DNA of 64,000 nt from NCBI GenBank assembly GCA_036252695.1, contig GCA_036252695.1_4122.1. The stretch is one strand, 5' to 3'. Positions 28,217 to 58,106 of this stretch are shown here, piece after piece (position 1 is the stretch's first letter; every line of letters starts with the position of its first letter). Below the pieces are notes generated by a model. The model was not told the origin of the DNA and did no database searches. It was given only the letters and a program-made list of their open reading frames with translations. The translations under genes were made by a program, and so were the position numbers. This DNA is from a phage.

Positions 28217-28459
28217 ATGAAAGTACTGACAGAATTAGAAATGTATCATAGATTTAATAAGTACTATCATTTACTTAAACCTATACAGAGGATTAAGTGT
28301 CCCTTTGTAGTGAAACAGGTATTAATTTATGAGCATAAGTTATTTGTATCATTAGGTACGAATGAACAAGATTATTATTTGAAGTTGTACTTAATTACTT
28401 TAATTGAATTGATTAATTCCAAAACTCAGAAAGCGAAGAAATATAAAAATGAAAACTAA
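28217..28459 (+). CDS. LGTNYQ-family small protein (A26)
   Basis: RBS ggag; SLGTNEQDYYL. Confidence 0.55.
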   Translation: MKVLTELEMYHRFNKYYHLLKPIQRIKCPFVVKQVLIYEHKLFVSLGTNEQDYYLKLYLITLIELINSKTQKAKKYKNEN

Positions 28460-28790
28460 AATTCAACTCAGGGTATACATATCGTATGAAAATATATACG
28501 TTAAAAGTAGTCTATGTAAAGATGTAATGGACTACAAAGGTAAACCATTCACAGTTACTTACAGTTTAACAGGAGGTTTATATATCTCTTTTGCTAATTA
28601 CGAAAATAATATGTACGAACACATTGACATTGAAGATTTAAGTACTTTATCACCAGAGGAATACTTCCAGGAATCATTAGTATGGGATTTAGAGTTCCCT
28701 ATGCCATTAGTACATAAGATGATAGTACTAATGAAAGAATCTAAACAGGAGCCTAATGGTGATTATGAAGAACACATTATTGAGTATTAA
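28449..28790 (+). CDS. FQ-motif family protein (B)
   Basis: motif PEEYFQESLVWD. Confidence 0.55.
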   Translation: MKTKIQLRVYISYENIYVKSSLCKDVMDYKGKPFTVTYSLTGGLYISFANYENNMYEHIDIEDLSTLSPEEYFQESLVWDLEFPMPLVHKMIVLMKESKQEPNGDYEEHIIEY

Positions 28791-28880
28791 GAGTTCTGAT
28801 AGTACTGAGAGTACAAATGTTCTTGACAGTACTTTTCATTACTGATATAGTGCACCAACGTTAATCATAGGGTACAGATT

Positions 28881-29126
28881 ATGTTGAATTTTTTAAATTT
28901 CCTTATCGTCTTGTGTATTGTTCTTGGGATTGCACCATTTGTATTGTATTTCATGGATTCAGATGAAATGCAGAAGATGAATTGCACAAGGACAGGACAG
29001 AGTAGAGTAGAGACGATTCTTATGCCTGTTACGGTTATTGTTAACAACATGCCAATTACGAACATGGTCCCTACCCTAACGACAACGTACCAGTACTCTT
29101 GTACAGACGGAGTGAGGTGGAGATAA
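28881..29126 (+). CDS. hypothetical hydrophobic protein (possible membrane protein)
   Basis: N-term MLNFLNFLIVLCIVLGIAPFVLYF; promoter-like TTGACA at ~28825. Confidence 0.4.
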   Translation: MLNFLNFLIVLCIVLGIAPFVLYFMDSDEMQKMNCTRTGQSRVETILMPVTVIVNNMPITNMVPTLTTTYQYSCTDGVRWR

Positions 29127-29449
29127 TGCGTAAATTCAATTGTATTGTACGTAAGAATTCATGTTACATTGTAGTAGCTGATTTTAATACGGGTTCTGGG
29201 TTGAAGATATTTGAGTACAGAAAATGTAATAATTCTTTTCATTGGAAATTAGGTGCAAGAAAAACAAATACAATTTCAGTACCGAATTTATGTTCTATCT
29301 CTGAAGAAGAAGAGTTTCAGTACATGTTAGTACACGATGATTCTTTAGGTTTTACATTAGAAGATATGAAGAAAGTGCAACAGCAGATGATTGCACATTG
29401 TCATCTTCCAAAGAATTTTGTTCAACACGTATGTGAATTCCACATATAA
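29126..29449 (+). CDS. FQ-motif family protein (B)
   Basis: RBS ggaggtggag; motif EEEEFQYMLVHD. Confidence 0.55.
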   Translation: MRKFNCIVRKNSCYIVVADFNTGSGLKIFEYRKCNNSFHWKLGARKTNTISVPNLCSISEEEEFQYMLVHDDSLGFTLEDMKKVQQQMIAHCHLPKNFVQHVCEFHI

Positions 29450-29557
29450 GAGAAGAATATGAAATTTAATATTCACAGAATGAAGATCAATGTTGACACT
29501 CCATTTGAATAGTGTTAACATGTTTACCTATTCAATTTTAAGATAAGGTACAATGAT

Positions 29558-30367
29558 ATGAAATTTTTAACAGAATCTGAAGCAACCAATTTGATTATGA
29601 AAAAATTTAGTTCTGGTGATTTAAAGAAATCAGCATCTTACAAAGGTTCAGTTGCCTTGAGTTTATATCTTGGTACAAATTATCAGGAAGCAGCACAAGA
29701 GCAATATATTAATGCATTAAAGGAAGAGATTCGAGAAAAAATTAAAATTAATAAAGATTGCAGTACTGATTTTTCAATTGAAAAGTTATTGAATATGTTT
29801 GTCAATACAACAGAGACACCAAGAAAAGAAGATGTTGGTTTAGGTCATGTAAGTGATTTTATGTACGCAGCATATGAATCTTTAGTACAGACTGGGATTG
29901 CTAAATCTGTAATTGAAGTGCATCGTAAATTTGAAGAAGGTGATGAAATTAGACAATTAGTTAAAGATAAAGAAAATAAGATTGGTCGTTTATTTGTTAT
30001 TAAGGACAATGATAGTTCTTCATATATTTTGATTAATACAGATAAGACATTCAATTATTACAAGGATTTACATTATTATATGATTACCAATTACGGAATA
30101 TCCTATTTAAGAAGTAATTGGGAAGTTGAATATGTATTTTATTTTAACAAACATTCGCATGGTTCAACAAGAACAAAAGATTTATATGAGCAAGCATTAA
30201 TGATTGCTACGCCTAATGAAAATGGCATTTTCAGTAAAGATTACGATAAGGTATTGGAACGTTTAAAACACAGAGCTTCGTGCGGGACAATGCCGTGTGA
30301 TTATAGTATTACACAATACAATAAAAATTATCATTGTGGTGTTTTTAAGGAACAATATAAATCATGA
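29558..30367 (+). CDS. two-domain protein: N-terminal LGTNYQ module + ~200-aa C-terminal domain
   Basis: SLYLGTNYQEAAQEQYINALKEEIREKIK at residues ~35-65; 269 aa. Confidence 0.65.
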   Translation: MKFLTESEATNLIMKKFSSGDLKKSASYKGSVALSLYLGTNYQEAAQEQYINALKEEIREKIKINKDCSTDFSIEKLLNMFVNTTETPRKEDVGLGHVSDFMYAAYESLVQTGIAKSVIEVHRKFEEGDEIRQLVKDKENKIGRLFVIKDNDSSSYILINTDKTFNYYKDLHYYMITNYGISYLRSNWEVEYVFYFNKHSHGSTRTKDLYEQALMIATPNENGIFSKDYDKVLERLKHRASCGTMPCDYSITQYNKNYHCGVFKEQYKS

Positions 30368-30684
30368 AATTTAATATAGCAAAAACATCTAATGTATGTA
30401 TATTTGGTTATGCTGATGAGTTAGGTGATCTTGACATTCTATTGTACAAAAAGGATGGTGTTATGCATTTCAAGTACCAGGATGAAGAGGCAGACAATTA
30501 TCCTTTACCTAATTTAGTACAAATGCAGGAAGATGAATTATTCCAGTACAGCTTAGTATATGACATTGATATTTGCACGATGCCAGTACTAATTAATATT
30601 CAAAAAGTGATGCTCGATGTGTTTGATAGGCTAATACAAGGCACACAAGGAAGAACCATATATGTCAATGTACAAGACAATTAA
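30364..30684 (+). CDS. FQ-motif family protein (B)
   Basis: ATGA coupling; EDELFQYSLVYD. Confidence 0.55.
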   Translation: MKFNIAKTSNVCIFGYADELGDLDILLYKKDGVMHFKYQDEEADNYPLPNLVQMQEDELFQYSLVYDIDICTMPVLINIQKVMLDVFDRLIQGTQGRTIYVNVQDN

Positions 30685-31819: not shown

Positions 31820-32365
31820 ATGAATGAGATAGAATTATTAGCACACAAGATTAGTACAATAATGCTTATCCTAAATAACAACCATCCTATATCGCAGATA
31901 GATGGAATCCTGAGTCAGAGGACAGGTGGTAGTTTATATTTGACATTAACAGAGGTTATCGCAAGGAATTACATTGATATTGAAATCGAGAACAGTGATG
32001 CATCAGGAAAGGTTGATGTAGGTGCATTAATCAGTTCAAATCCAGTATCAGCATCCCCATTGACCAAAGGTGTTAGTACAGGATTCGAAGGGTATTTGTG
32101 GTACAATACCAATGATGATTATTTTATATATCAGCATTCCAATACAAATTATGATGAAGACAAATTTCAGTTCATAGACCCTTATGATGAAGCTGAAGTA
32201 TTTCAAAAATCATTAATCACAAAACCGCATGAGATGATGTATCTAATGTTATTCAGTACAATGCATTTGAATCCATTAATTAAAGGTTTAAAATTTTATA
32301 TTCAATTGAATTTAGTCCATGTAGTTTATGATTTATTAATGCAAGGATATAGTTATGAAGTATAA
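31820..32365 (+). CDS. FQ-motif family protein (B-like)
   Basis: EAEVFQKSLITK. Confidence 0.5.
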   Translation: MNEIELLAHKISTIMLILNNNHPISQIDGILSQRTGGSLYLTLTEVIARNYIDIEIENSDASGKVDVGALISSNPVSASPLTKGVSTGFEGYLWYNTNDDYFIYQHSNTNYDEDKFQFIDPYDEAEVFQKSLITKPHEMMYLMLFSTMHLNPLIKGLKFYIQLNLVHVVYDLLMQGYSYEV

Positions 32366-32672
32366 AATGCTTAATACAGTATCAGGGGTATATGTAGAAT
32401 TAGAATCCGATTATTCAGATGGATGGAATTTTATTAAACGACACGATAGAAATACATGGTACATGGCACATTTGGATAATGACGTAATAATAGATAATTT
32501 TGTCGATTTTAATACATTATCAGAAGAAGAATTTTTCCAAATGCAATTTGTGCTTGATACAAATGGATTTGATTTGCTATTATTAAGGAATATTCAGAAA
32601 GCGGTTAATGAATTCATAATCCAAAATAATTCAGGTAAAATGGGGATGTTCCATGATCTGGAAGTACAATGA
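32355..32672 (+). CDS. FQ-motif family protein (B)
   Basis: EEEFFQMQFVLD. Confidence 0.55.
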   Translation: MKYKMLNTVSGVYVELESDYSDGWNFIKRHDRNTWYMAHLDNDVIIDNFVDFNTLSEEEFFQMQFVLDTNGFDLLLLRNIQKAVNEFIIQNNSGKMGMFHDLEVQ

Positions 32673-33210
32673 AATTCAGTACACCTACGCTAATGCAATC
32701 CTTATGGGACAAAAGTTAGCTTGTATTGTTGCAGCCTTATATAATGCACAGAAAGATTACAAGCGTCATATTCACAAATATATTGGTATTATTCCATCGA
32801 AGTACAATACATATATTGCGTGCACGAGTCATTTTGATAAACGATTCAATACACCTGATACCCCAAATGCCAGTAGTGTTATTGGTCTTTTGGATTTCGC
32901 ACCTGGTGCTGTTATTGGAAAGAATGATTTAGAGTACACATGGTATAATAAAAATGCCCCGTTAGTAATGGTAAAATATGATACAGAAACGAATAAAACA
33001 ATAGAGTACAATACATATAAATCAGAGGAAGAATTTTTCCAAGGTTCATTGCTTGTGCCAGTGCGTTTGTTGTTTTATAATGTCCTTATTAGTACAGTAC
33101 ACAATAGTCCATTACACAAGAATCACAAAATTAATTTCAATTTTTGTGCTTATGCGATTGATGGTGTGTATGAGTGTTTAATGGAGGTATTGAGTTATGA
33201 AGCTGAATAA
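32653..33210 (+). CDS. FQ-motif family protein (B)
   Basis: EEEFFQGSLLVP. Confidence 0.55.
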   Translation: MIWKYNEIQYTYANAILMGQKLACIVAALYNAQKDYKRHIHKYIGIIPSKYNTYIACTSHFDKRFNTPDTPNASSVIGLLDFAPGAVIGKNDLEYTWYNKNAPLVMVKYDTETNKTIEYNTYKSEEEFFQGSLLVPVRLLFYNVLISTVHNSPLHKNHKINFNFCAYAIDGVYECLMEVLSYEAE

Positions 33211-33538
33211 TACATTTGATATTAATAAGTTAAGAGAATGGTTTTATAGTATTGAAATTGAAGCCATCCCATATCATAGATATGAACAATATAATTTAAC
33301 CAGTATTGATATCAGTGAGTTGTACGCGTATTATCAAAGTGCATTAGAGATGCATAAGTTATTTTTGAGTACAGATTTTGTTCTAAATTACAATTTTGAG
33401 GAATTTAATAATTATAATTTAGTACAGAAATATGTAGTAGCAAAGTATATGTACCTTCAAGGAATTACAAGTAATTTGGAATTCAATACAGTCCTTGCTT
33501 TAGTTGAGGTAATTTTATGCAGTACATGTATGATTTAG
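33197..33538 (+). CDS. hypothetical protein
   Basis: ORF track; no family motif. Confidence 0.45.
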   Translation: MKLNNTFDINKLREWFYSIEIEAIPYHRYEQYNLTSIDISELYAYYQSALEMHKLFLSTDFVLNYNFEEFNNYNLVQKYVVAKYMYLQGITSNLEFNTVLALVEVILCSTCMI

Positions 33539-34023
33539 AGTTCAGCTTAGATGCTGCCTTTAAATTTGTTCACAAGATAGAAACAATATACAGTACATTA
33601 TGTGCAATAAAATCAGTAACAGAAGAGCTTGATGTTGGTGAAAAATATCAGGTATGGAATAATACATTTCTAAACAAAGAACGTTGCTCTACGGGGTTTA
33701 ATATTTTAACATTTAATCCCAGCAATTGTTACCCAGAGAAGCATGAACGTTATCCGAATGACGACATGTGGTTTGATTACACAAAAGATGGTGATATGTC
33801 ATCCCTTGTAGTTCCTGATGATTTTAATGCCGAAGATTTAACGGAAGAGTGGTGGTTTCAACAGAATTTAGTCCATGATGATATTGATTTATTTTTTTAT
33901 GTAGTATTTAAAATGCTTTATCACAACAATATATTAAAAGATAGTGTGTTTTTTTCATGTCTATATATTGATGATTTGTACAATGAAATCCAAATCAACA
34001 TTCCCAGCACGCCTGTATCGTAA
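33517..34023 (+). CDS. FQ-motif family protein (B)
   Basis: EEWWFQQNLVHD. Confidence 0.55.
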   Translation: MQYMYDLEFSLDAAFKFVHKIETIYSTLCAIKSVTEELDVGEKYQVWNNTFLNKERCSTGFNILTFNPSNCYPEKHERYPNDDMWFDYTKDGDMSSLVVPDDFNAEDLTEEWWFQQNLVHDDIDLFFYVVFKMLYHNNILKDSVFFSCLYIDDLYNEIQINIPSTPVS

Positions 34024-34048
34024 GATATGGGCTTTTTTCGTTTTGGTA

Positions 34049-34077
34049 TTGACAAAGAAGTGCAAAGCTGTTATCAT
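34049..34077 (+). promoter_or_regulatory. sigma70 promoter internal to the array
   Basis: -35 TTGACA 34049-34054, 17-nt spacer, -10 TATCAT 34072-34077. Confidence 0.55.
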
Positions 34078-34105
34078 GTGTAATCATTTTAAAGGAGAAC
34101 ATATA

Positions 34106-34618
34106 GTGAGTTTCATAATCCCAAGTACATACGAAGATGCATCAAGTGCAGTTCATAAGATTCATTATATTTTTAATTTAATTATTAGATCTGCAAAAAA
34201 TAAAATGTATGCACCTCTTGTGGAATACGATAAAAATGAGGAAATTTTTGTTAGCACAGACCAAATTATTTTTCCATATTTCAATGAAGATAGATTGTGG
34301 TTCATGCATTTAGCTGCATTACAAAAATATAAAATGTCAATTCGTAATAATTTGGATATACCGTTATATCATCCTGATATTGGAGAGGATGAATATTTTC
34401 AGTACAGTACAGTACACCGCCATGAAGATATCTTTGTTGCTATGCTTATTGCTAAATTGAATACCGTTGATTTGGAGCAGTACAAATACAATAATAAATC
34501 ATGTAAGATCATAATCCCTGCATTCATAGCTCTTTATGATTATGTGGTGCATAACAAAAAAGATGATACATATGCTTTCAATGAAGAGTATTTGAATTTT
34601 TTTAAGGAGAACATATGA
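34106..34618 (+). CDS. FQ-motif family protein (B), GTG start
   Basis: RBS aaaggag 8 nt before GTG 34106; ORF-track ATG 33944 lies upstream of the promoter; EDEYFQYSTVHR. Confidence 0.5.
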   Translation: MSFIIPSTYEDASSAVHKIHYIFNLIIRSAKNKMYAPLVEYDKNEEIFVSTDQIIFPYFNEDRLWFMHLAALQKYKMSIRNNLDIPLYHPDIGEDEYFQYSTVHRHEDIFVAMLIAKLNTVDLEQYKYNNKSCKIIIPAFIALYDYVVHNKKDDTYAFNEEYLNFFKENI

Positions 34619-35142
34619 GCAGTGACGTGCAGAAATCAATGACATTCAATGAAATTGGTGCATTTAAAGATAAGATCATTGATTGTCTTGAATACATGAT
34701 TTGTAGTAATATCGAAAGTATCGAGATATTTAACAAGACAAATCGCTCTTACCATATGATGTACATTGCAAACAATAATGGTATCATTCCATTTATTTCG
34801 GATAGTACAATATGGTACGCATGTGATACGAAAAAAACCACAATAGGTTTACATTTATTTGAGACACATTATGATCTAATTATTCCTGAACATTGTATGC
34901 AAGAAGAAGAATATTTTCAAATGCAATGTATACATTCACCATTAGTGTTGTTTAGTTTATATATTATACCTTATATCACCAAATGTGTTCATGAGAATAA
35001 AGCTCCGTGGAATCATGAATTTGTATCGTTGAAGTTATTGTATAATGTATTAGTAGAATATTATGATTACAGGCACAATGGTACAATCAGTGATGTATGG
35101 GATTTTGAATCGCTAAGGGTGAAAACATACACAGGTGAATGA
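34615..35142 (+). CDS. FQ-motif family protein (B)
   Basis: ATGA coupling; EEEYFQMQCIHS. Confidence 0.55.
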   Translation: MSSDVQKSMTFNEIGAFKDKIIDCLEYMICSNIESIEIFNKTNRSYHMMYIANNNGIIPFISDSTIWYACDTKKTTIGLHLFETHYDLIIPEHCMQEEEYFQMQCIHSPLVLFSLYIIPYITKCVHENKAPWNHEFVSLKLLYNVLVEYYDYRHNGTISDVWDFESLRVKTYTGE

Positions 35143-35758
35143 TATGACCAGAATTAAAATGTATGATTTGATGCAGTACAGTAAAATTGCCATTCCGGTG
35201 CTTAATAAAGTGCTGGATGCATTCATTGCCAAATACCCTGAGAATTCAGTGTTATGTATTCCATTTAGTGTTCCAGATAAAGATGATATATTTCAAGTGA
35301 ATGTCAGTACACGTGGTATTACATTGCAGCAGAAATACATGGATACGGAATATTATGGAATAAAGTTGGATTCAGTACAGGGTTCTAAATCAGCCTATGA
35401 TTTTTTTGTTCCTAATAACATCGAGTCATGGGAAACAAACATTTCAAAGAAAGATGAAAATGATGTTCCTATTAGTGGTGTGTTCAACAATAAAGTTTTT
35501 TATTATTACGAAACCGACAAATTCCCTGAAGAGTTATATTACAATTCAGAAATGAATGAAGATGTAGATGCATTCATGTTTCAATTATCTTTAGTACATG
35601 ATATCATTGATGTTCAAGAGTTAAGAGCAGAAATCAATTTAGCTAAAGAGTTATCGGACATGCTCCCACCGTTTAGTATGCTTTTTTGTGAAGGAGGTTA
35701 TTTTTCAAAAGAAGTGTTTGAACATTTCGTAGATGTTGTAAAAGGGTTGGATATATAG
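35135..35758 (+). CDS. FQ-motif family protein (B)
   Basis: DAFMFQLSLVHD. Confidence 0.55.
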   Translation: MNDMTRIKMYDLMQYSKIAIPVLNKVLDAFIAKYPENSVLCIPFSVPDKDDIFQVNVSTRGITLQQKYMDTEYYGIKLDSVQGSKSAYDFFVPNNIESWETNISKKDENDVPISGVFNNKVFYYYETDKFPEELYYNSEMNEDVDAFMFQLSLVHDIIDVQELRAEINLAKELSDMLPPFSMLFCEGGYFSKEVFEHFVDVVKGLDI

Positions 35759-35962: not shown

Positions 35963-36478
35963 ATGCATCAACACAAGCATCATTCATATGATTTTGCAAT
36001 TAACATTATGAAGTTTATTCGAGCGTTGGAGGATGGGAAGCTTAGTCATAAGTACAGGAAAGAGGGTAACAATTGGTTCAGAAATGATTCCGAGTTCAGT
36101 TGTCATAAAATCGTGTATAGTAATCAGTACAGTGCCAATTACCTACAAGATGTAGTGATGTGTTTTGAATACGTGTTGCAGTTCAGGGGTTCAATCCAAG
36201 ATGAGTTGATGGAGAACATGTACATCCGATACCTTCCAATGCTCAAAGATGAAAATGTATTATTAAATTCAATATACCAACGAGTTCGTGAAATTGAGTG
36301 CAGGGATATATTAGATACAGAAGAATCGTATTTCCAGCAATCCCTGATTTATTCACCTGATTTATTACAGGTACATAATTTGTTTAATACATTACGTCAG
36401 AACATCAGTACAGACATATTTTTGTCATTATCGGATTATGATACATTTGTCAAAGATTTAGAGGAAATAGGTTTATGA
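35963..36478 (+). CDS. FQ-motif family protein (B)
   Basis: RBS gaggtaaaaa; EESYFQQSLIYS. Confidence 0.55.
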   Translation: MHQHKHHSYDFAINIMKFIRALEDGKLSHKYRKEGNNWFRNDSEFSCHKIVYSNQYSANYLQDVVMCFEYVLQFRGSIQDELMENMYIRYLPMLKDENVLLNSIYQRVREIECRDILDTEESYFQQSLIYSPDLLQVHNLFNTLRQNISTDIFLSLSDYDTFVKDLEEIGL

Positions 36479-36816
36479 GTCGATTTTCGGTTTGTGTGGT
36501 AAACATAAAAAGTGATGGTAGTTTAATTGAATTAGATGTATATGATGATGATAATGCATATGGTATTAAAGTACAGGACAATGATGTGCAGTTCAGTTCA
36601 AGAACAAATTTTGAAAATCCAGTCCAAGTTCCTAATTTCATAGAAGATGAAGCAGCACGTTTCCAATACGAAACGGCATATGACAATGTACATATGCATA
36701 TTATTATGCAACAAAGTTTAGTTCAATTAGTTCCTTTGTTCAGACAAAATATATATGTACATGAATTGTCGATCAATGACGTTCGCAGTTCCGTATTGTT
36801 CGATACAAATATGTAA
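36475..36816 (+). CDS. FQ-motif family protein (B-like)
   Basis: ATGA coupling; EAARFQYETAYD. Confidence 0.5.
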   Translation: MSRFSVCVVNIKSDGSLIELDVYDDDNAYGIKVQDNDVQFSSRTNFENPVQVPNFIEDEAARFQYETAYDNVHMHIIMQQSLVQLVPLFRQNIYVHELSINDVRSSVLFDTNM

Positions 36817-36826
36817 GGAAAGTACA

Positions 36827-37986: not shown

Positions 37987-38191
37987 AGACGTTTCATTTT
38001 GACAGGCCGCTGGAGGGGGTCAAAAAAATTTCCGCTGAAAAACATGCTAAGGTATATGTTTAATATAAAGTTTTATATTGTGTTTTTCAGAGTACAGTTC
38101 ATGTTTCCTTAAACAAAAAAATACCCCGCCACCGAACGTGCTCCTTATATTGGAGTTTACCTTATTAATTATAGTAGAGACTACAATTGAA

Positions 38192-46347: not shown

Positions 46348-46354
46348 GGTTTAT

Positions 46355-49675: not shown

Positions 49676-50235
49676 ATATCAATGATTACCAATTTCATAG
49701 GCTTGAATTTCGTCATTGTGTTGCATTTGCAAAAACATTGATGTGCATCATTGACACTCTTTCATCCAAACAATTTCGTAAGGATAATGATTTATTTCTG
49801 AAAAAAGGTCGTGTAACATCAACCGATATCGGTATTGAACTATTTGTTGATATCAGTGTTGATACCGGAGACAGTACAAGGGTTGGTTGTATAGGTCATA
49901 TTGGTACACATTGCTTCACATGGAATCCAAATACAAGTCAAGTACGAATTGATTATAGAAATTCACGTTGGGTTGATCTTAGTACTGAATCAGATTTAGA
50001 ATCAGCTATGTTCCAGCTAAGTTTAATTCACAATCCTAATGAACTTCTTTACATTATTACTTTCAGTTATCTGTTACAAAACTACGATAATCCATCAGGA
50101 TTTTTCATAGAATCAGATATAGATGAAATTATGGAAGAGATTCCAAGTTTAAAGAATATTCTCGAAGAAAAAGATTTCTATGAAGACTTCAGAGATTTAT
50201 ACGACATGCACTTGGAGTTATTTAAGAATGGATAA
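49672..50235 (+). CDS. FQ-motif family protein
   Basis: ATGA coupling; ESAMFQLSLIHN. Confidence 0.55.
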   Translation: MNINDYQFHRLEFRHCVAFAKTLMCIIDTLSSKQFRKDNDLFLKKGRVTSTDIGIELFVDISVDTGDSTRVGCIGHIGTHCFTWNPNTSQVRIDYRNSRWVDLSTESDLESAMFQLSLIHNPNELLYIITFSYLLQNYDNPSGFFIESDIDEIMEEIPSLKNILEEKDFYEDFRDLYDMHLELFKNG

Positions 50236-50746
50236 AGATGATATTCTAATTAGACTAATTAATAGTTTAATAAAGTTCTCAAATAATGATGTCGATACAT
50301 ACAAAGTGGGGGATATTGAATTTAAATCATTTGGTATGTACGGTGAGGATAAAACATATTATGCGTCAATGAAATTTCAAGATTTTCACGAGATGTTAAT
50401 ATCGTTATCATATGAAGATGTTGATCCAAGATGGAGTTCCAGTATTTCACTATCGAGAATGGTAATTCGTAGTAAGCATCGTTATATTTCGTCAAAGAAT
50501 ACTCCTAACTTGATTAATATTGTGTTGAATGAAAATACAAATCCCCTATCTAAACATGATATCGTACCGTTAACCGATGAAGTTATTTTTCAATTGAGTA
50601 CCATTTGTGATGAAGATGTGATATCATGTATGAAAATTTATGAGAAGGTTGGGAGTGATATTCCCATGAACTATTACCTAACTATAGATGGAACGTACCT
50701 TCGAGATGAGGTTCTAGCGTACATCGACAGTGTTTTACCAAAATAA
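50228..50746 (+). CDS. FQ-motif family protein
   Basis: DEVIFQLSTICD; ATG 50228. Confidence 0.5.
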   Translation: MDKDDILIRLINSLIKFSNNDVDTYKVGDIEFKSFGMYGEDKTYYASMKFQDFHEMLISLSYEDVDPRWSSSISLSRMVIRSKHRYISSKNTPNLINIVLNENTNPLSKHDIVPLTDEVIFQLSTICDEDVISCMKIYEKVGSDIPMNYYLTIDGTYLRDEVLAYIDSVLPK

Positions 50747-50772
50747 AGACCCGTATGGGTCTTTTTGTGTTT
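50747..50772 (+). terminator. intrinsic terminator
   Basis: agacccgtatgggtct hairpin + ttttgtgttt. Confidence 0.8.
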
Positions 50773-50833
50773 ATGGCTTTACAAGAGCATTCAGGTGTGT
50801 TATACTTGATTTTAACTAGAGTTGGAGGAATCT

Positions 50834-51400
50834 ATGAGTACTGAATTAATTAAAGAAGTCACATTACTTCTGAAGCATTGTTTTAAGTTCATTCCTGATA
50901 CTGGCTCACGCCAGTACATTAAAGTTAATGAGAAATATAACATCAATATCCTTGTATCTGAAACTGCGAGCAGTTATGCAAACATTGAGTTGGATTCTGA
51001 AGAAAAATATACAGTATTACAAATCATAGCAGATGTACAACGTAAACAAGATTATCGTTCTTCATTTTACAACGATCATCTGTGTGTTTGCTCAAACTTC
51101 AGTGAGAATAAAATTGTGTATAAGAATTTATACACACATGAAGTGATTGATACATATAATTATAAAATTTCATCTGATGAATACAATGTTCTAATGTTCA
51201 ACGCAAACCTTTTGTATGATGCCAGTACTGTACGCTGTTTAGAGTTAGCATATAAAATTCCAAAGATCATGGAAAGAAAAGATTTGATTCACTTTAAAAC
51301 TATTTTAAAATACAGTACAAAAGAATTAGAGGATTTAGTACAGGCTCTTAAGAATTTCATTAATGAACATGTACCTGTTAAATTCGAGGATGCACAATGA
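50834..51400 (+). CDS. hypothetical protein (189 aa)
   Basis: RBS ggagga before ATG 50834. Confidence 0.55.
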   Translation: MSTELIKEVTLLLKHCFKFIPDTGSRQYIKVNEKYNINILVSETASSYANIELDSEEKYTVLQIIADVQRKQDYRSSFYNDHLCVCSNFSENKIVYKNLYTHEVIDTYNYKISSDEYNVLMFNANLLYDASTVRCLELAYKIPKIMERKDLIHFKTILKYSTKELEDLVQALKNFINEHVPVKFEDAQ

Positions 51401-51981
51401 ACCATATCAGAACTAAAATTTTGAGACTCATGCATGACATTGCAGAACTTTCAGAGATTCATGACATTACAGAAATTGTTGAATTTGATGATTATCGACT
51501 GAAAATTGAAAACAAATCCAAACATCGTTTTGGATCAGTTCAGTTGGATGTATATAAAACTTATGAATTTTCTAAAAAAATTAAAAGTTCATGGGATACG
51601 ATTACTATGTACATTCGCACATCCAGAAATCGTGAACGTATTGGTTCTATTTCTTCTAATATGGTATTTGCGAATGCATTACATGAAAAAATGAATAAAA
51701 TTGTAGAATCTAATTTCAGTGAAGATGATGGATTTATTGGGTTGGATGTTCCACCAGAATTAGACCAAAGTGAAGATATTCGAGATGCATTCATTTTCCA
51801 GAAATCCTTGTTGGACAATTACAAAGAATTCGAGTACTTAATGCTTTGTTACGATACTGCAAAAATTCTTGATTGTGGTGAACTAGTTATGTACAATGAT
51901 TTTATCAATTGCAAGACTGATGTTCTGAATACACTACTTCAAAATATAGAATCTGTTAAGGAAAAATATGAACGCTTATAG
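51397..51981 (+). CDS. FQ-motif family protein (B-like)
   Basis: ATGA coupling; RDAFIFQKSLLD. Confidence 0.5.
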   Translation: MNHIRTKILRLMHDIAELSEIHDITEIVEFDDYRLKIENKSKHRFGSVQLDVYKTYEFSKKIKSSWDTITMYIRTSRNRERIGSISSNMVFANALHEKMNKIVESNFSEDDGFIGLDVPPELDQSEDIRDAFIFQKSLLDNYKEFEYLMLCYDTAKILDCGELVMYNDFINCKTDVLNTLLQNIESVKEKYERL

Positions 51982-52546
51982 TTATATGACAGAACGCCAT
52001 CAGTTATTATATGATATCAGTAAAAAAATGCTATCAATTGTTGGTAGTGCGAAAGAAATTGAAAAACAATATCTCATCCGTGATGTATCAATTTCATCCA
52101 AATGTTGGTCAAATGAATATTACGACCACGGTATTCTTACTATTTCTGGGGCCAGAAATATTTGTATTGTAAAAAATAAAAGTAAAAGTAATGAAGAGTG
52201 TGAGATTAGAACCGATATACAAATTAAGGATGATGGAAGTTTTTCACACCACCCATTCCATATTAGTACTGTTGGTGTTTTATATAATATTAAAGTACTA
52301 TTCGGTGATGAAGAGTATGTGTTAAAATCTATCAATCCAGATTCAAGTACAGTTGAAGAAGAACTGTTCCAGATGAGCACTGTTATACCTGAAGAGGTTC
52401 TTAGTACTATTATTTTTTGTAGTTTAATTTATCATGAATACAAAAAGAACCAGTTCGATTTCCACATGTTAGGAACGTACATCTTCAATAATTTGAATGT
52501 AGATCGTTTAAAAGCATTAAATGCAGCAATGGATAAGGTTATATAA
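51968..52546 (+). CDS. FQ-motif family protein
   Basis: EEELFQMSTVIP. Confidence 0.55.
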   Translation: MNAYSYMTERHQLLYDISKKMLSIVGSAKEIEKQYLIRDVSISSKCWSNEYYDHGILTISGARNICIVKNKSKSNEECEIRTDIQIKDDGSFSHHPFHISTVGVLYNIKVLFGDEEYVLKSINPDSSTVEEELFQMSTVIPEEVLSTIIFCSLIYHEYKKNQFDFHMLGTYIFNNLNVDRLKALNAAMDKVI

Positions 52547-52974
52547 TGACAAGAGATGATTGTTTGTACATATGGGATATAATTGAAACTACACTTTCAA
52601 ATCCAGAAAATTATAAAACAAAAAAAAGACAACGACACAAAATATGGATAGATTTGTTCGTTGAGGGCATACACGCAGTGACTATTTGGGATTCACCGAG
52701 GGCATCAGCATCTACTCTATTGGACAATGAATGCATTGATTGTATTAATTCCACTTTTCATCTCTACGGTACTACATTTTTCGGTACATTTCTGGATATT
52801 GAAAGTAAAGATGATATTGATTCACTTGCGTTACAATACCAAGTACTGTATAATACTAAATTAATTTACGATTTAGTACTAGCTTCTTATGTGTATAAAT
52901 TAATGATGAAATATAATCATATTTCAGTTTCAGTTTATACTAAGGATATTCTTTCATTAAGAGACAAAACATGA
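52546..52974 (+). CDS. hypothetical protein
   Basis: ORF track; TAATG coupling. Confidence 0.45.
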   Translation: MTRDDCLYIWDIIETTLSNPENYKTKKRQRHKIWIDLFVEGIHAVTIWDSPRASASTLLDNECIDCINSTFHLYGTTFFGTFLDIESKDDIDSLALQYQVLYNTKLIYDLVLASYVYKLMMKYNHISVSVYTKDILSLRDKT

Positions 52975-53480
52975 GTTTATTAAATGCACGCGAATTAGTT
53001 GAGATGTATGAGATTTTGTCTTCATATAAAAATTCTCATGGAGATGTGATTCTCGACAAAAAGTTCCATGTCAGTGTTGAACATATATCAAATATAGATA
53101 TGATTTCTTTGGTGGAAAGTAATAAGTCAGGTCTTGAACGCGATATCATGCGTTTGATTTATATTCCCAAACCATCATATACTAATGATAGTTCAATTAG
53201 TAATGAGACATTCATGTATAGTCCTGGTACGGATTCTACTATAGTATCGCTGTCCAATAAATCAATGGGTACTTTCCAATTCATCTATACCAGTACTGAT
53301 AACATTGAAGAAATTGAATTTCAAAACAATACATTAAGTCCATGTAGTAGTGTTATAACCTTTATGTCATATCTATGGTCAACTAAAACAAGTGCTGTTG
53401 TATATAGTTCAAATTATACACAAGATAGTATTGTTGAATCATATAAAGTTCTAAAGGAATACTATGAAAATAACAAATGA
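52971..53480 (+). CDS. FQ-motif family protein (divergent)
   Basis: ATGA coupling; EEIEFQNNTLSP. Confidence 0.5.
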   Translation: MSLLNARELVEMYEILSSYKNSHGDVILDKKFHVSVEHISNIDMISLVESNKSGLERDIMRLIYIPKPSYTNDSSISNETFMYSPGTDSTIVSLSNKSMGTFQFIYTSTDNIEEIEFQNNTLSPCSSVITFMSYLWSTKTSAVVYSSNYTQDSIVESYKVLKEYYENNK

Positions 53481-54045
53481 TTTTATTAAAAGTGTAGTAC
53501 ACCCTATGCTTAGTATTATGAAAAAAATACAGAATCTACCGGAAGATAACGATTACAAGTTTAATCGTTTTGATTCAGATGTGTTTTGTATTGAAATTGA
53601 AATTAATAACAATCGCAATTTACATTTAAAATTCAAAGAATCGTCAAGTCCGTACTACAACTTTGATATGAATTTTAAAATAGATACTGACATTGAAGAA
53701 AACGTAATATCAAATCATACTAGCAAAAATGGTTTTATGCATAGAACTACTATGTACAATAATAAAAATAGTATTATATCTAAATGGAATCATCAATTCA
53801 CTAAAATTTGTGAAATTGAATATAGTGATTTTGGTGAAGAGCATTACTTTCAGTTAAGTACAATTCATGAACTTCCACCGTATGATTATGTTAAAACATG
53901 GTTTGATATTCATAATATAATTGATGATGCAATCAAACTTCCATTTGGTGTGTCAATATCATATACTGCTCCTAAAACATTTGTTTTTACTGAAGATATG
54001 ATTATGAAAAAGATATGGGCAATTATCCCACTTATGACGGATTAA
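53464..54045 (+). CDS. FQ-motif family protein
   Basis: EEHYFQLSTIHE. Confidence 0.55.
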   Translation: MKITNDFIKSVVHPMLSIMKKIQNLPEDNDYKFNRFDSDVFCIEIEINNNRNLHLKFKESSSPYYNFDMNFKIDTDIEENVISNHTSKNGFMHRTTMYNNKNSIISKWNHQFTKICEIEYSDFGEEHYFQLSTIHELPPYDYVKTWFDIHNIIDDAIKLPFGVSISYTAPKTFVFTEDMIMKKIWAIIPLMTD

Positions 54046-54050
54046 ATTCG

Positions 54051-54077
54051 TACCAGGGGTTGACTCTGGTATTTTTG
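54051..54077 (+). terminator. intrinsic terminator
   Basis: taccag...ctggta hairpin + tttttgt. Confidence 0.55.
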
Positions 54078-54106
54078 TATGATACATTGTCCTAAAGGAG
54101 AATTTT

Positions 54107-54658
54107 ATGAACTACAATCATGATCTTTTTACATTATGTGCATCCAAATGTGTTGATGGATGGACAGATAAAATCAATACCATAATTCATCGATATCTGG
54201 TCTTTAGTTCTCGTGCACGAAGTGAGGGGGCTATGGATTTCAAATATACACTATCTATTGATGGTGTAACTATCCATGCAGACGAAGAACGTCTGAGCAT
54301 TAATTTGTATGATTCCTGTGTATTTGCTATTCACCAAAAGATGGGGAAAGGATGGGGTTGTAATAACATTAACTCAAAAGCTATCTTTTGGGTTGGTCAC
54401 CACCAGACAGTACTTGATCCTTCAATCAAATCTAATCTTTTATCCGATAATATGGTTTATGATTTATTGTACTCCGAAGAACAACATTTTCAGTTAAGTA
54501 CATTACATGATCTGGCACAGTACGAGGATTGTTACAAAACATTAGAACTATGCCATTCCCTTGAACTTAAAGATAAATTGATACAAGTTTACCCTTCATT
54601 CTTTCATGAAGAAGTACAAAGTACACTAGATCATATTTTATATGGATACGATAAATGA
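54107..54658 (+). CDS. FQ-motif family protein
   Basis: RBS aaggagaa; EEQHFQLSTLHD. Confidence 0.55.
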   Translation: MNYNHDLFTLCASKCVDGWTDKINTIIHRYLVFSSRARSEGAMDFKYTLSIDGVTIHADEERLSINLYDSCVFAIHQKMGKGWGCNNINSKAIFWVGHHQTVLDPSIKSNLLSDNMVYDLLYSEEQHFQLSTLHDLAQYEDCYKTLELCHSLELKDKLIQVYPSFFHEEVQSTLDHILYGYDK

Positions 54659-55257
54659 GAAAAAGTTATCAAGAAGCTATTGACTTAATTCGTGAAGTTA
54701 TCAAGGTGGCTCCTGCTGCTATTGAGTTCAAGAAGTCCATATACAAGAAGTATGGTTCAATGTCGAGTATGTGCTTTCAAAAGAAACGTAGAGCATTCAC
54801 TACCCAGTACTGGAATGATTCTATCATCCTGAGCAATGAGACTCAGCGTATTTTAACACTAGAATCTGAACCTAATGAGTACGGGGAAGGGAACATTTGT
54901 GTACCTGATTATGATGAAATTAACTTCAACTGCGGTGATTTTGAAACAACATTATTACTTCATGAGGGTTATCCAGAAGGTGATGTATTAGCTGAGTACA
55001 ATCCAAAAACTAAAATTCTCAAAAGAGGAATCCAGTTCACTATTAATAACAAAGATGATGTTCAAGCAGCACTGATGCAACTGAGTACAAGTGAACCTAT
55101 CACTATTAGTGTAGAAGAGTTATGGGGAATTATTTCAGTACTCAATGAGTGCTACAAAGTAAAATCATTGCGTAAACACAGCATTATATTACATACCAAT
55201 ATGGCAAATATAAAATGTAAGCACATTCAAGAAATGGTGGTTCCAGATGGACTTTAA
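54655..55257 (+). CDS. FQ-motif family protein (divergent, MQ variant)
   Basis: ATGA coupling; QAALMQLSTSEP. Confidence 0.45.
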   Translation: MRKSYQEAIDLIREVIKVAPAAIEFKKSIYKKYGSMSSMCFQKKRRAFTTQYWNDSIILSNETQRILTLESEPNEYGEGNICVPDYDEINFNCGDFETTLLLHEGYPEGDVLAEYNPKTKILKRGIQFTINNKDDVQAALMQLSTSEPITISVEELWGIISVLNECYKVKSLRKHSIILHTNMANIKCKHIQEMVVPDGL

Positions 55258-55831
55258 AGAAATTGAAAGTAAATTAAAGTACTTCAAAGATATCAAACTT
55301 CTTTGGAAAAAGTATAAAGTTGATTACAATTTCAGTGATGATGAGACAATAAAATACATTGAGATTAATATCAAAATCAAGTTCAAGAATAATAATTATG
55401 GTGAAGTAAGCTTAAATCATACTGGTATATCACTCAAGGACTATGATGGTACAACACTCGCATATTTCGACTTCACACCAGAACCAGGTGAAACACTACT
55501 TAGTGAGATAAATTCCTATGACATGGAAGTGTTCGGCGGGAATCCGTTACTGTTCCGACTTTCTGAAGAGTGGAGTGAAGAGTACTACACTTACAAAGAT
55601 GGTGTAGTACTTGACATTCATGGAGAAGTTGTGAATGACTTGGAAGAACGTTTGTTCCAAGAATTGTGTGTTTCAAATACTTCATATGCATACAATCATA
55701 TCCTTGACATGTTTGATTTATATAATAAAATAGATGCTGAAATGAATGCACATGGTATTCATTACCTTACAATTAACGACTATGCTCAACTCGAAACCGC
55801 TGTGAAAGCATTGACTAAAGTACTGAAATAG
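55247..55831 (+). CDS. FQ-motif family protein (divergent)
   Basis: EERLFQELCVSN. Confidence 0.45.
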   Translation: MDFKEIESKLKYFKDIKLLWKKYKVDYNFSDDETIKYIEINIKIKFKNNNYGEVSLNHTGISLKDYDGTTLAYFDFTPEPGETLLSEINSYDMEVFGGNPLLFRLSEEWSEEYYTYKDGVVLDIHGEVVNDLEERLFQELCVSNTSYAYNHILDMFDLYNKIDAEMNAHGIHYLTINDYAQLETAVKALTKVLK

Positions 55832-55840
55832 GAATGAAAT

Positions 55841-56254
55841 ATGAAACTGTATCATGCGAGTACTGTAAAAATTGATAACTTTTATATCCCGTATGGTGGT
55901 CTTCATATGGGAGGTAAACACAGTGCTTTGGAAGCTGCATTACGCAAGCTGAGAAGCCCACTGAACGTAGTAGACGCATGTACAGTATACTTGCATACCT
56001 TAGAAGTTGATGTTGATAACGTGCTTCTGTGTGAAGATTTAGGTAGTGATGATGAGTGGCGTGCACTAATTGAACATTGTATTTCGAAAGGTTACGATGC
56101 TGTTCAGTACAAAAATGACTACGAGCCTGATAATGTTCCTAGTTATATGATTTGGGATGCATCTAAAGTTCGCATCATTGAAGTTGATGCTATGCATATG
56201 GATGAAGCTGAAATGATTATCGAAGATTTTCTTGATGAATATGAAGGTGTATAA
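55841..56254 (+). CDS. hypothetical protein (137 aa)
   Basis: RBS aggaatgaaat; ORF track. Confidence 0.5.
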   Translation: MKLYHASTVKIDNFYIPYGGLHMGGKHSALEAALRKLRSPLNVVDACTVYLHTLEVDVDNVLLCEDLGSDDEWRALIEHCISKGYDAVQYKNDYEPDNVPSYMIWDASKVRIIEVDAMHMDEAEMIIEDFLDEYEGV

Positions 56255-56790
56255 TGACTGACCCGATGGTAGCACTGGCACGTACAAAATTACTATTAAA
56301 GATTGGTGAGATTTTTACGGTTCTTCTGTCCAATAATATTGATATCACTGAGCTAGATATTAGGCAACCGTGGGAAGTGACTATGTTCTCGGCGTTCCAC
56401 CGATTGTCATATAAAGGTGAAAGTGTTCTTGATTTTAACCCTAAAGCAAAATTCATAGATTATGCTGCGTTGTACAGAGAGTTGCACCGAAATATTTATT
56501 CCGGTTGTATAACCAATAACTTTGACCGAATTCAAGTTCAAACTGCATCACATGAGTTCAATGATTTACTTTATCCAGAATTTAATCTAACTGAAGAATT
56601 ACTCTTTCAGTACTCGTTAATTCTCACAAATCTCGAAACGCTAGAGTACTACAAAGAGTTAGTAGATATTTTTATGAATACACGACTTTCAAAAGATATT
56701 GTGATATTCTGGTATACAGAGCATGTTACGGAGGAATTGCTTACTGAATTTCTTCTAAATATGACAGCTATAAAGGAGAAGTTATGTTAG
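56254..56790 (+). CDS. FQ-motif family protein
   Basis: TAATG coupling; EELLFQYSLILT. Confidence 0.55.
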   Translation: MTDPMVALARTKLLLKIGEIFTVLLSNNIDITELDIRQPWEVTMFSAFHRLSYKGESVLDFNPKAKFIDYAALYRELHRNIYSGCITNNFDRIQVQTASHEFNDLLYPEFNLTEELLFQYSLILTNLETLEYYKELVDIFMNTRLSKDIVIFWYTEHVTEELLTEFLLNMTAIKEKLC

Positions 56791-57257
56791 ATATTTTAGG
56801 AAACATCGATACTGCAAATTATTTTATCCAGGACGCACTGTTCAATACAGTTCAACAAGGATTAGAAGTTCGTCATAACGTTTACCAAGGTGATGGTTAT
56901 TTCGTTGATATTGTTGAGGCACGAAAGAATACGTTTAATGTTAACATTACAACACTGGGTAGACAGAACATTGCACGAATTTTAGTAAGTAAAGATGAAA
57001 TTGTATTGAGATACAGTGCTAAGTTTATGTTGACTTATAAGAAAAAAACTGATATGTTCAGTACTAATTTATTTGATGAACCATTTGACCTTGATGATAT
57101 TGAAGCTACTTTCTTTACTCAAAGTACTATGGTAAAATACACTGATGTTCAATTTTCTGCTGATGTAATGTCAGAAACATTACAAATGATCAAGGTATTA
57201 TTTTATGCATTTGAGCAATTTAGAGAAGAAAGAAACAAGGTTAACAACCACAGATGA
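56784..57257 (+). CDS. FQ-motif family protein (divergent)
   Basis: EATFFTQSTMVK. Confidence 0.45.
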   Translation: MLDILGNIDTANYFIQDALFNTVQQGLEVRHNVYQGDGYFVDIVEARKNTFNVNITTLGRQNIARILVSKDEIVLRYSAKFMLTYKKKTDMFSTNLFDEPFDLDDIEATFFTQSTMVKYTDVQFSADVMSETLQMIKVLFYAFEQFREERNKVNNHR

Positions 57258-57618
57258 ACTAATAGAGGCGATCACTAAGGAGTCAAAATACCACAAAGGG
57301 ATTCGTCTATATTTTATAGATATTGGTTCAATGGAAGGCATATACATTTATGGTTCACAATCTTTATCTTATGATGTAATGCCAAAAAAACACGTAAAAA
57401 TCTTTTTAGGTTCAGATAAAAAAACTTTCTTGACAATTAATGATAAAAACGTTATTATGAATTCGTTGGGTCATGATAAGGTGGAAATTGATCTAAACAC
57501 GCTTGAGGATATTGATTTTTTTCAATACGAGTGTTTAGGTGTTGACTTACATGGCATTAGTAGCGATAAGATAAAATCATTAATCAAATATTTCGAAGGT
57601 GTTCATAAATGTATCTAA
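57205..57618 (+). CDS. FQ-motif family protein (divergent)
   Basis: DIDFFQYECLGV; start uncertain. Confidence 0.4.
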   Translation: MHLSNLEKKETRLTTTDELIEAITKESKYHKGIRLYFIDIGSMEGIYIYGSQSLSYDVMPKKHVKIFLGSDKKTFLTINDKNVIMNSLGHDKVEIDLNTLEDIDFFQYECLGVDLHGISSDKIKSLIKYFEGVHKCI

Positions 57619-58106
57619 CTAAATCAATGAAAAATTCATTTGATAAAATCAAGAGTTGTCTTGATGGGGAAAATATTACAAGTGTTACACAAACTGCTGA
57701 CCAAATTCAAAGCAGTTCAAGTGATTGTACTGTTATTTTAGGTTTACATAGTCTACGTTTATCAATAGTAAATAATATTGACAACACTGCTATTGTAATC
57801 ACACCATGCAATATTCAAAATGAGAATGGTGTATATCTTCATCACATGGGAACAGTATTTCATATTTTCAATACAAACGAAAACATTGTTAAGGAATACA
57901 AATCTCTTAATATTGATTCAGGTGAATTATTTCAAATGAGTACTTTGTACTCATGTAATTTCACAGATACTTCATGCATTTTGCCATTTTTCTTGGAAAT
58001 TATTAAGAAAATGGAAAATTTAAAACGTGAATACAATAAAGAAATGGTTCCTGAAGCTATATTAAATATTACTAATGCTATAGAGAAGTATAATGCAGTG
58101 ACTTAA
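57609..58106 (+). CDS. FQ-motif family protein
   Basis: SGELFQMSTLYS. Confidence 0.55.
   Translation: MYLTKSMKNSFDKIKSCLDGENITSVTQTADQIQSSSSDCTVILGLHSLRLSIVNNIDNTAIVITPCNIQNENGVYLHHMGTVFHIFNTNENIVKEYKSLNIDSGELFQMSTLYSCNFTDTSCILPFFLEIIKKMENLKREYNKEMVPEAILNITNAIEKYNAVT

Follow-up and report, generated by a model that had tools for sequence, protein, structure and literature searches.

Expansions of related genes in jumbo phages, such as the zinc ribbons of phage G, are mentioned in the literature only in passing. Nearly 10% of the gene products of Klebsiella phage RaK2 are paralogous to one another (PMC3622015), and Hua et al. (2017) read the tandem arrays of phages 121Q and G as duplication-driven genome expansion (PMC5646251), a remark that is repeated in a 2026 review. 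Here, we analyze a tandem array of same-strand paralogous genes in a 64,000-nucleotide stretch of phage DNA (contig GCA_036252695.1_4122.1 of GenBank assembly GCA_036252695.1), which is referred to below as the window. The array comprises 45 open reading frames (ORFs) on the + strand, spans 29.7 kb (positions 28449-58106) and encodes ~45 soluble, mostly acidic proteins of one superfamily that is restricted to RaK2-like jumbo phages. We call it the FQ family, after a Phe-Gln pair that all members share. The remark of Hua et al. may concern a neighbouring array of 70-amino-acid (aa) proteins, the LGTNYQ family described below; the literature that we have searched contains no account of the FQ motif, of the unification of the superfamily or of its fold or function, and speaks only of "paralogues" or of a "tandem array".

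The segment 38000-46000 of the window is 97.2% identical over its full length to Escherichia phage 121Q, an Asteriusvirus jumbo phage, and is also matched by ~35 other Asteriusvirus jumbo phages with E. coli and Salmonella hosts. The + strand is the coding strand of all substantial ORFs of the window. Array genes mostly overlap or abut, with few gaps, and family ORFs total 21.6 kb, i.e., 73% of the array span and 34% of the window. In the annotated relatives 121Q, UE-S1, RaK2 and ph0011, they are labelled "hypothetical protein". The termini of phage fEgEco12 and its direct terminal repeat of 20,993 bp are known from experiment (PMC13070987), and the counterpart of the array in this genome is located at ~27.6-55.4 kb. 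The window start maps to the fEgEco12 terminal repeat, which puts the array next to the inner edge of the left repeat, with its genes oriented away from this repeat.

The original prediction described about 48 paralogues sharing the linear motif [DE][DE]x[FY]FQxS[LT][VI][YHWF][DN]. ORFs of the region were searched with patterns of different stringency, and the counts were compared with those obtained with residue shuffles (500 for the strict pattern). The motif is real, but the pattern as first written is too strict: it is found in only 4 ORFs (0 in 500 shuffles). The core pattern FQ.[SA]..[YHWF][DN] is found in 20 ORFs and a relaxed pattern in 39, compared to means of 0.05 and 0.07, respectively, in the shuffles. 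All matches fall in one of the three + frames; the minus strand has none. When a profile was built iteratively from ORFs of the window, the search converged on 41 members (E<1e-3). With a wider profile made from 180 sequences, database homologues included, 45 ORFs were retrieved at a cut-off of E<0.01, all within 28449-58106 and none elsewhere in the window; four of these (36475-36816, 43248-43784, 51397-51981 and 55247-55831) are outside every seed set. Between five and seven further array ORFs have degenerate look-alike motifs; since their hhalign comparison with the family profile was not significant, they were not counted as members. The figure of about 48 thus holds as a fair estimate, with 45 paralogues demonstrable. 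Members and candidates are listed below, with E values from the broad-profile hidden Markov model (HMM) search.

28449-28790, + strand: short form; motif SPEEYFQESLVWD; E=9.1e-13
29099-29449, + strand: short form; SEEEEFQYMLVHD; E=5.3e-15; missing in 121Q and UE-S1
30364-30684, + strand: short form; QEDELFQYSLVYD; E=9.9e-12
31820-32365, + strand: long form; E=2e-18
32355-32672, + strand: short form; E=8.4e-11; UE-S1 orthologue not found
32653-33210, + strand: long form; E=1.5e-16; UE-S1 orthologue not found
33517-34023, + strand: long form; TEEWWFQQNLVHD; E=2.6e-15
33944-34618, + strand: member; E=1.7e-12; GTG-start ORF over-extended (the start annotated in 121Q is ~170 nt later, leaving a gap with a terminator- and a promoter-like site)
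34615-35142, + strand: long form; E=1.2e-16
35135-35758, + strand: divergent long form; VDAFMFQLSLVHD; E=3.8e-5
35963-36478, + strand: long form; E=1.2e-19
36475-36816, + strand: short, degenerate motif RFQYETAYD; E=2.9e-5; outside seed set
36755-37378, + strand: long form; E=6.2e-15
38078-38575, + strand: subtype C; E=1.1e-13; true start probably the ATG near 38237 (121Q annotation)
38796-39164, + strand: short form; SEEEFFQESTVWN; E=5.3e-12; UE-S1 orthologue not found
39164-39520, + strand: subtype C, modelled short form; E=6.2e-13
39517-39876, + strand: subtype C; E=2.5e-10
39886-40356, + strand: subtype D; E=2.5e-25
40358-40828, + strand: subtype D; E=4.1e-25
40825-41268, + strand: subtype D; E=1.3e-24
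41268-41756, + strand: subtype D, modelled long form; E=7.4e-29
41734-42186, + strand: subtype D; E=4.6e-29
42183-42497, + strand: short form; E=4e-6
42802-43251, + strand: member; TEEGYFQGSTVYE; E=2.4e-24
43248-43784, + strand: divergent, CFQLSCTD; E=8.9e-4; outside seed set
44139-44699, + strand: member; E=1.4e-13
45298-45660, + strand: short form; E=8.4e-11
45584-46027, + strand: member; E=1.2e-13
46006-46347, + strand: short form; E=2.1e-10
46307-46891, + strand: member; E=1e-29
46951-47427, + strand: member; E=1.4e-23
47424-47909, + strand: member; SEEMYFQGSCIHD; E=6.7e-26
47899-48261, + strand: short form; E=1.6e-13
48245-48658, + strand: member; E=4.8e-9
48646-49149, + strand: member; E=2e-26
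49672-50235, + strand: member; E=8.7e-19
50180-50746, + strand: member; E=4.5e-14
51397-51981, + strand: divergent, IFQKSLLD; E=5.1e-4; outside seed set
51968-52546, + strand: member; E=7.5e-16
52971-53480, + strand: weak member; E=8.2e-3; syntenic with RaK2 ORF430
53464-54045, + strand: member; E=2e-11
54107-54658, + strand: member; E=1e-7
55247-55831, + strand: divergent, LFQELCVS; E=6.4e-5; outside seed set
56254-56790, + strand: member; E=3.4e-8
57609-58106, + strand: last member of the array; E=8.8e-6; syntenic with RaK2 ORF439
50822-51400, + strand: candidate degenerate member (MFNANLLYD), by eye; hhalign probability <4%, membership not demonstrated
52546-52974, + strand: likewise candidate, by eye; hhalign <4%
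54655-55257, + strand: likewise candidate, by eye; hhalign <4%
56784-57257, + strand: likewise candidate, by eye; hhalign <4%
57205-57618, + strand: likewise candidate, by eye; hhalign <4%

The FQ pair is present in all 45 members at 49-76% of the ORF length (median 67%; the range first proposed was ~55-70%), and the ORFs encode proteins of 104-224 aa. It is embedded in the sequence [ST]-E-E-x-[YLF]-F-Q-x-S-[LT]-[VIL]-[YHFW]-[DN]. As can be seen from the 41-member alignment, F and Q alone are invariant, and the E, E and S of the motif are each substituted in ~1/4 of members. In the profile logo, F and Q reach 4.4-4.5 bits each, followed by E-E and S-[LT]-[VI]-[YH] and then by aromatic strand positions. 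The residue directly following the Gln is hypervariable, and the positions preceding F and those of [LT][VI][YH] are hydrophobic. Short forms have a second, nearly invariant Gln ~20 residues past FQ, in the long helix and within the pattern [ILV]-Q-x-x-[ILMV]-K (e.g., Q90 of 39164-39520); this Gln is not conserved in long forms. The flanks are highly divergent, as had been claimed: mean identity to a reference member is 10-20%, except in two young subgroups. The latter are subtypes C (38078-39876, 3 genes) and D (39886-42186, 5 genes), both recognized in the original prediction, which, with identities of 35-59%, are the sole young duplications. UE-S1 has a 242-aa gene with two FQ motifs (19544-20272, protein P0014, corresponding to window 38078-39520), which is a natural fusion of two subtype-C units and might be a hint that adjacent paralogues form pairs.

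FQ proteins are 12-24 kDa in size and mostly acidic, with a median isoelectric point (pI) of 4.8 and a median net charge of -9, compared to a median pI of 7.9 for other window ORFs. The grand average of hydropathy is negative in all members but 56254-56790 (0.00), and transmembrane character is not evident. Ten representatives match PHROG groups phrog_9317, 12674, 13866, 15629, 19795, 22855, 31297 and 34636 with E values of 1e-49 to 1e-144. Since there are cross-hits between these phrogs, the split "unknown function" groups are pieces of one superfamily. In Pfam, NCBIfam and PADLOC, each family was matched by 1 of the 41 members at most and never above the curated cut-off; a profile search of PDB sequences yielded nothing above noise, and no match to a SUKH-type fold or an SMI1_KNR4-type profile was found.

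A profile search of 1.84 billion cluster representatives retrieved 174 sequences at E<=1e-3. The named matches are Klebsiella phages RaK2, K64-1 and Muenster and E. coli jumbo phages, all of them RaK2-like; a BFVD structure search added, with weaker scores, GAP32, Serratia phage BF and Yersinia phage fHe-Yen9. In relatives at 25-45% identity, the motif is even sharper, [LMIF][ST]EE.[YF]FQ.S[LT][IVL][YH]. Copy-number variation among related phages, which the original prediction had proposed to look for, does exist: the same profile finds 45 copies in the window, 44 in 121Q, 42 in UE-S1 (one being the two-domain fusion) and 33 in RaK2, and a 20-kb piece of a metagenomic relative contains at least 34 members in an array that runs past both of its ends. 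ORFs 29099-29449 and 29558-30367 are missing from 121Q, and UE-S1 has no orthologue of four family genes. Many relatives cover only 37-87% of the array in its 5′ third, the 3′ part is well conserved, and most copies are kept one-for-one across the genus. In RaK2, the array is located upstream of the same landmark genes, methylase and cytidylyltransferase. A closer match in RaK2 than among paralogues in their own genome is found for 24 of the 45 members. Thus, most of the expansion is older than the split of the two genera, with the subtype C and D bursts and the losses coming later.

Codon usage at the motif is that of a protein-coding constraint. The invariant Phe is encoded by TTT in 24 and TTC in 17 members, the invariant Gln by CAG in 24 and CAA in 17, and the conserved Ser by AGY in 21 and TCN in 10. 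Since AGY and TCN codons cannot be interconverted by single synonymous steps, a DNA-level repeat free of protein constraint, the outcome that the original prediction named as speaking against it, does not account for the motif. The ratio of nonsynonymous to synonymous substitution rates (dN/dS, ω), pooled over orthologues, is 0.276 for family and 0.274 for non-family genes in comparison with 121Q, 0.249 and 0.234 with UE-S1, and 0.231 and 0.185 with ph0011. Single family genes have ω of ~0.1-0.5, and none exceeds 0.66. Four ORFs nested in other frames of family or neighbouring genes (40632-40847, 40961-41206, 41449-41640 and 60162-60353; 63-81 aa) have dN/dS of ~1 or higher relative to UE-S1, from which we conclude that they are not genes; they also serve as an internal control, demonstrating that the test is able to detect missing constraint. 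Since dN/dS between orthologues is well below 1, the paralogues are, one by one, genuine genes maintained by purifying selection.

These values do not bear out the strong diversifying selection that had been deduced from the scale of the expansion. On the gene-wide scale, no signature of positive or diversifying selection is seen within the genus (ω of 0.23-0.28 against three relatives, near the values of neighbouring genes), and most duplications are old. Between genera, the picture is different: in syntenic comparisons of this phage with RaK2, family orthologues are 21-34% identical, whereas interspersed non-family genes are 41-64% identical. Each paralogue is therefore kept by purifying selection, yet between genera the family diverges much faster than its neighbours.

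To see where in the protein substitutions fall, they were summed over pairs of recent orthologues: they are least frequent in the motif and C-terminal helices (3-5% of comparisons) and most frequent in three beta-meander loop regions (10-15%). These elements are defined by two separate AlphaFold2 models. The model of the long member 41268-41756, for which the 41 paralogues served as the alignment, has a predicted local distance difference test score (pLDDT) of 88, ~96 across the motif, and a predicted template modelling score (pTM) of 0.82. It contains a helix (residues 3-21), seven strands (28-97), a short helix (99-103), the motif helix 109-115 (EEYYFQN), the linker STLYN, a helix (121-135), a strand (141-144) and a helix (145-152). 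The short member 39164-39520 (pLDDT 80.5, pTM 0.77) is predicted to have five strands, the motif helix 65-75 (AGELFQAALVF), a helix (83-99) and a strand (108-112). Since the two models agree, the common core comprises a beta-meander of 5-7 strands, the motif helix, a long helix and a terminal strand, flanked in long forms by one additional helix at each end. No relative with a solved structure was detectable for this predicted alpha/beta fold, and, as judged from the models, the fold of the FQ family is apparently new. The motif is predicted to form a short helix with [ST] as the probable N-cap, EE in the first turn and then F-Q, and S-[LT]-[VI]-[YH]-[DN] would join it to the next helix. Such a placement of [ST]-E-E, at the beginning of a helix, and of D/N, ahead of the following one, is a classical sign of capping and helix-dipole effects.

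Two known peptide motifs that resemble the FQ segment were considered and rejected. A beta-clamp-binding motif (QL[SD]LF or QLxLxL) has Leu at position 2 and Leu or Phe at its last position. In the family, position 2 after Q is hypervariable and position 4 is Thr in 17 of 41 members, and the FQ segment is internal and confidently folded (pLDDT ~96) rather than an exposed, disordered or terminal peptide. A tobacco etch virus (TEV)/NIa-type protease site, E-x-x-Y-x-Q-[GS], requires Gly or Ser after Gln; these are found in 3 and 0 of 41 members, respectively, and the conserved Ser is one residue further. The full site occurs only in 42802-43251 (EEGYFQG) and 47424-47909 (EEMYFQG), while 32653-33210 has F at P3. 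In these two members it has, very probably, arisen by coincidence from the family motif, although it should be kept in mind if the proteins are to be expressed with TEV-cleavable tags.

What might such a family do? Our preferred reading, which we hold tentatively but consider a real possibility, is that the array may encode a repertoire of binders on one scaffold that serves early host takeover or counter-defence. Since substitutions are rare in the motif and the C-terminal helices and common in the beta-meander loops, the former can be viewed as a scaffold with a variable face. The FQ helix and C-terminal helices would thus stay invariant, and the variable loops would set specificity, with a different target for each paralogue. 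The products would act as stoichiometric binders or inhibitors of host proteins, and the array would correspond, in a phage, to the multigene families found in large DNA viruses of eukaryotes.

One can expect that such genes would be transcribed early, by host RNA polymerase, since the array is located immediately inside the left repeat, contains promoter- and terminator-like sites, and its products were not found in virions. Promoter-like sites with at least 10 of 12 matches number 30 on the + strand, and 7 of these are located in the gaps, which make up 4.7% of the sequence (P=4e-4). Terminator-like hairpins share gaps with promoter-like sites, so that σ70-type promoters and intrinsic terminators would split the array into several units. 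The sites in question are as follows.

28823-28851, + strand: σ70-type promoter-like site, TTGACA-17-TATAGT, TG-extended, in an intergenic gap
34011-34077, + strand: intrinsic-terminator-like hairpin (34011-34032), then promoter-like site (34049-34077; TTGACA-17-TATCAT, TG)
46888-46917, + strand: perfect σ70 consensus, TTGACA-18-TATAAT, TG-extended, gap 46892-46950
50745-50806, + strand: terminator-like hairpin (50745-50764) and promoter-like site (50778-50806), in a gap
54050-54072, + strand: terminator-like hairpin, gap 54046-54106

Further intrinsic-terminator-like hairpins are found just downstream of the array, at 58734 and 60765. A second perfect σ70 consensus (TTGACA-17-TATAAT, 63748-63776) lies within the 3′ end of ORF 63426-63959, which is annotated as cytidylyltransferase or NrdB in relatives. 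The virion proteome of phage phAPEC6 comprises 62 proteins identified by mass spectrometry (PMC7247149), and none of them is in the range gp400-499, where the array is located (a D-type member is gp442c).

Several points weigh against a repertoire of early binders. Its expression timing, binding partners and phenotype are inferred. The whole-region count of promoter-like sites is not above shuffle expectation, and only their placement in gaps is significant. Within the genus, an arms race is not apparent from gene-wide dN/dS. That the motif is buried is deduced from secondary structure and residue pattern alone, and the invariant polar Gln with the conserved Glu-Glu could equally mark a shared functional site. 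Finally, acidity and small size are common in many phage early proteins and are not specific.

The last-but-one of these points leads to an alternative that we regard as unlikely but deserving of attention, namely, that the FQ motif, besides belonging to the fold core, functions as a docking or catalytic site common to all paralogues. The E-E...F-Q...S residues would then bind the same partner in each of them, e.g., a hub protein of the host or a machine of the phage, and the variable parts would bring cargo, making the array an adaptor family akin to the F-box/BTB expansions of large viruses. This would fit the invariance of F and Q at an otherwise 10-20% identity, the still sharper motif in 25-45% relatives, the mainly polar nature of the conserved residues (E, E, Q, S, D/N), the hypervariable position after Q, which suggests that the motif is partly exposed, and the second nearly invariant Gln 20 residues downstream in short forms. 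However, only F and Q are invariant, and a catalytic site would not normally tolerate the replacement of E, E and S, each in about a quarter of members. In both models, the motif lies in a confidently folded helix between sheet and helix (pLDDT ~96), and the capping and helix-dipole features provide a sufficient structural reason for its conservation. A specific version appears doubtful to us, in which a new fold would serve as a modular adaptor, with the invariant E-E...F-Q helix docking all paralogues on one central machine of the host or phage (e.g., protease, RNA polymerase or replisome) and the ~45 beta-meander faces capturing or obstructing one host protein apiece; it would be a phage equivalent of the F-box/BTB substrate adaptors of giant viruses.

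Little probability attaches, in our view, to an array resembling polyimmunity loci, in which each paralogue would be an antitoxin-like immunity protein that counters a separate toxic effector (e.g., an abortive-infection nuclease, a bacteriocin or a toxin of a competing phage). Tandem small, acidic and divergent paralogues on one scaffold are the layout of polyimmunity loci, as reportedly described by Zhang, Iyer and Aravind for polymorphic toxin systems, and the acidity and the gain and loss of genes between strains agree with it. Yet the proteins have no similarity to SUKH, another known immunity fold or a Pfam family, and toxin genes are not recognisable nearby. This explanation is also a special case of the takeover or counter-defence repertoire, from which it is indistinguishable here.

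That the array is largely dispensable genome filler, with tandem duplication filling an enlarged capsid (the ratchet model of Hua et al. 2017) and copies being redundant or near-neutral, we consider improbable. Hua et al. did read the 121Q and phage G arrays as duplication-driven expansion (PMC5646251), and some copies have been gained or lost between close relatives. Nevertheless, each copy has ω of ~0.1-0.5, like neighbouring genes, in contrast to ~1 or more for the nested spurious ORFs; most copies are retained one-for-one in the genus, half have recognisable RaK2 counterparts, and the paralogues are too diverged for redundancy. A role as virion components, or as components of the phiKZ-like inner body of 121Q-like phages, is very improbable: an inner body is seen in 121Q and phAPEC6, and phiKZ inner-body proteins include paralogues, but the 62 phAPEC6 virion proteins do not include any of gp400-499, and the location and the σ70 promoter-like sites of the array suit early rather than late expression. 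An artefact of DNA-level repeats or non-coding ORFs can be dismissed, as it is refuted by the synonymous codon use (both Ser families) and purifying selection, by the frame- and strand-specificity of the motif and by the confident structure models.

Irrespective of function, ~7% of the genes in a whole clade of 350-kb phages, including therapy candidates against E. coli, Klebsiella and Salmonella, belong to one superfamily. The unifying profile and motif make annotation of the family easy, and the structure of the array makes deletion experiments straightforward. The family is also a clean system for studying the persistence of a fold when nearly all of the sequence around an anchor of two residues has been replaced. 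If the array does encode a host-manipulation or counter-defence repertoire, it would rank with the largest sets of effectors on a single scaffold known from bacterial viruses and would be a compact source of new inhibitors of bacterial proteins.

The surroundings of the array have features of their own. Positions 1 to ~22300 of the window are the counterpart of the long direct terminal repeat of Asteriusvirus-type phages: positions 53-5762 align with fEgEco12 352455-357974, across the start of the right repeat copy, and the first base of the Turkey3 record is window position 142. This region contains small genes, each with its own intergenic spacer. Since parts of 3183-7107 are 83-85% identical at the DNA level to the unrelated ~145 kb phages A7_1, A5-4 and JLBYU50, and positions 1-8000 are matched by 197 phage records, comparison of the sequences suggests that small genes of the terminal-repeat region are exchanged horizontally.

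Between this region and the FQ array, at 22814-28459, is a second paralogue family, with proteins of ~70 aa and the motif [LIVMF]G[TSAN].Y[QEKR], typically LGTNYQ; a simple pattern is matched by 14 ORFs. One LGTNYQ-type copy (43958-44149) sits within the FQ array, and the two families are interleaved in RaK2. ORF 29558-30367 (269 aa), which has a RaK2 orthologue at 40% identity and is missing in 121Q, consists of an LGTNYQ-type N-terminus fused to a 200-aa C-terminal part. Neither the family HMM nor hhalign supported a cryptic FQ domain in the latter. Another gene within the array, 55841-56254 (137 aa), does not belong to the FQ family and is 61% identical to RaK2 ORF435, far above its FQ-family neighbours; its label "putative ADP-ribosyl transferase" in the ph0011 record received no support from Pfam, NCBIfam or PDB-sequence searches.

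As a viral tandem multigene family (of the "genomic accordion" type) or early gene block, the locus is of a known kind; the family itself, its fold and its size in a phage (~45 genes and 21.6 kb per genome) have hardly been described. AcrID1-type anti-CRISPR families are a case in which one small-protein family has many paralogues near the termini of lytic archaeal rudiviruses, with at least one anti-defence member; these proteins are unrelated to the FQ family and belong to another host domain, and for FQ proteins an anti-defence activity is only a proposal. SUKH/Imm polyimmunity loci are similar in being arrays of small, acidic, divergent alpha+beta paralogues with a common scaffold. The ~35 zinc-ribbon genes of Bacillus phage G and the LGTNYQ array share with the FQ array the tandem expansion of a small domain in a jumbo phage. 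However, the zinc ribbon is recognisable, whereas the FQ family has no recognisable domain or fold, and FQ members are larger and far more diverged than the ~70-aa LGTNYQ copies.

The T5 pre-early genes, the SPO1 host-takeover module and T4 early genes resemble the FQ array in encoding small, often acidic, non-virion proteins beside a terminal repeat, under host σ70-type promoters (predicted sites in the case of FQ genes). They differ in that their products are unrelated small proteins and not one 45-member superfamily; early timing of the FQ array is itself a prediction. The MGF110/360/505 multigene families of African swine fever virus (ASFV) and the terminal gene families of poxviruses belong to another host domain and have another protein fold, and the FQ family, unlike them, is under purifying selection within the genus and has a fairly stable copy number (42-45). 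A host-range or immune-evasion role would for the FQ family be only presumptive. What these families and the FQ array have in common is the arrangement of dozens of tandem same-strand paralogues near a genome end, a conserved core amid strong divergence, gain and loss of copies between strains and non-structural products.

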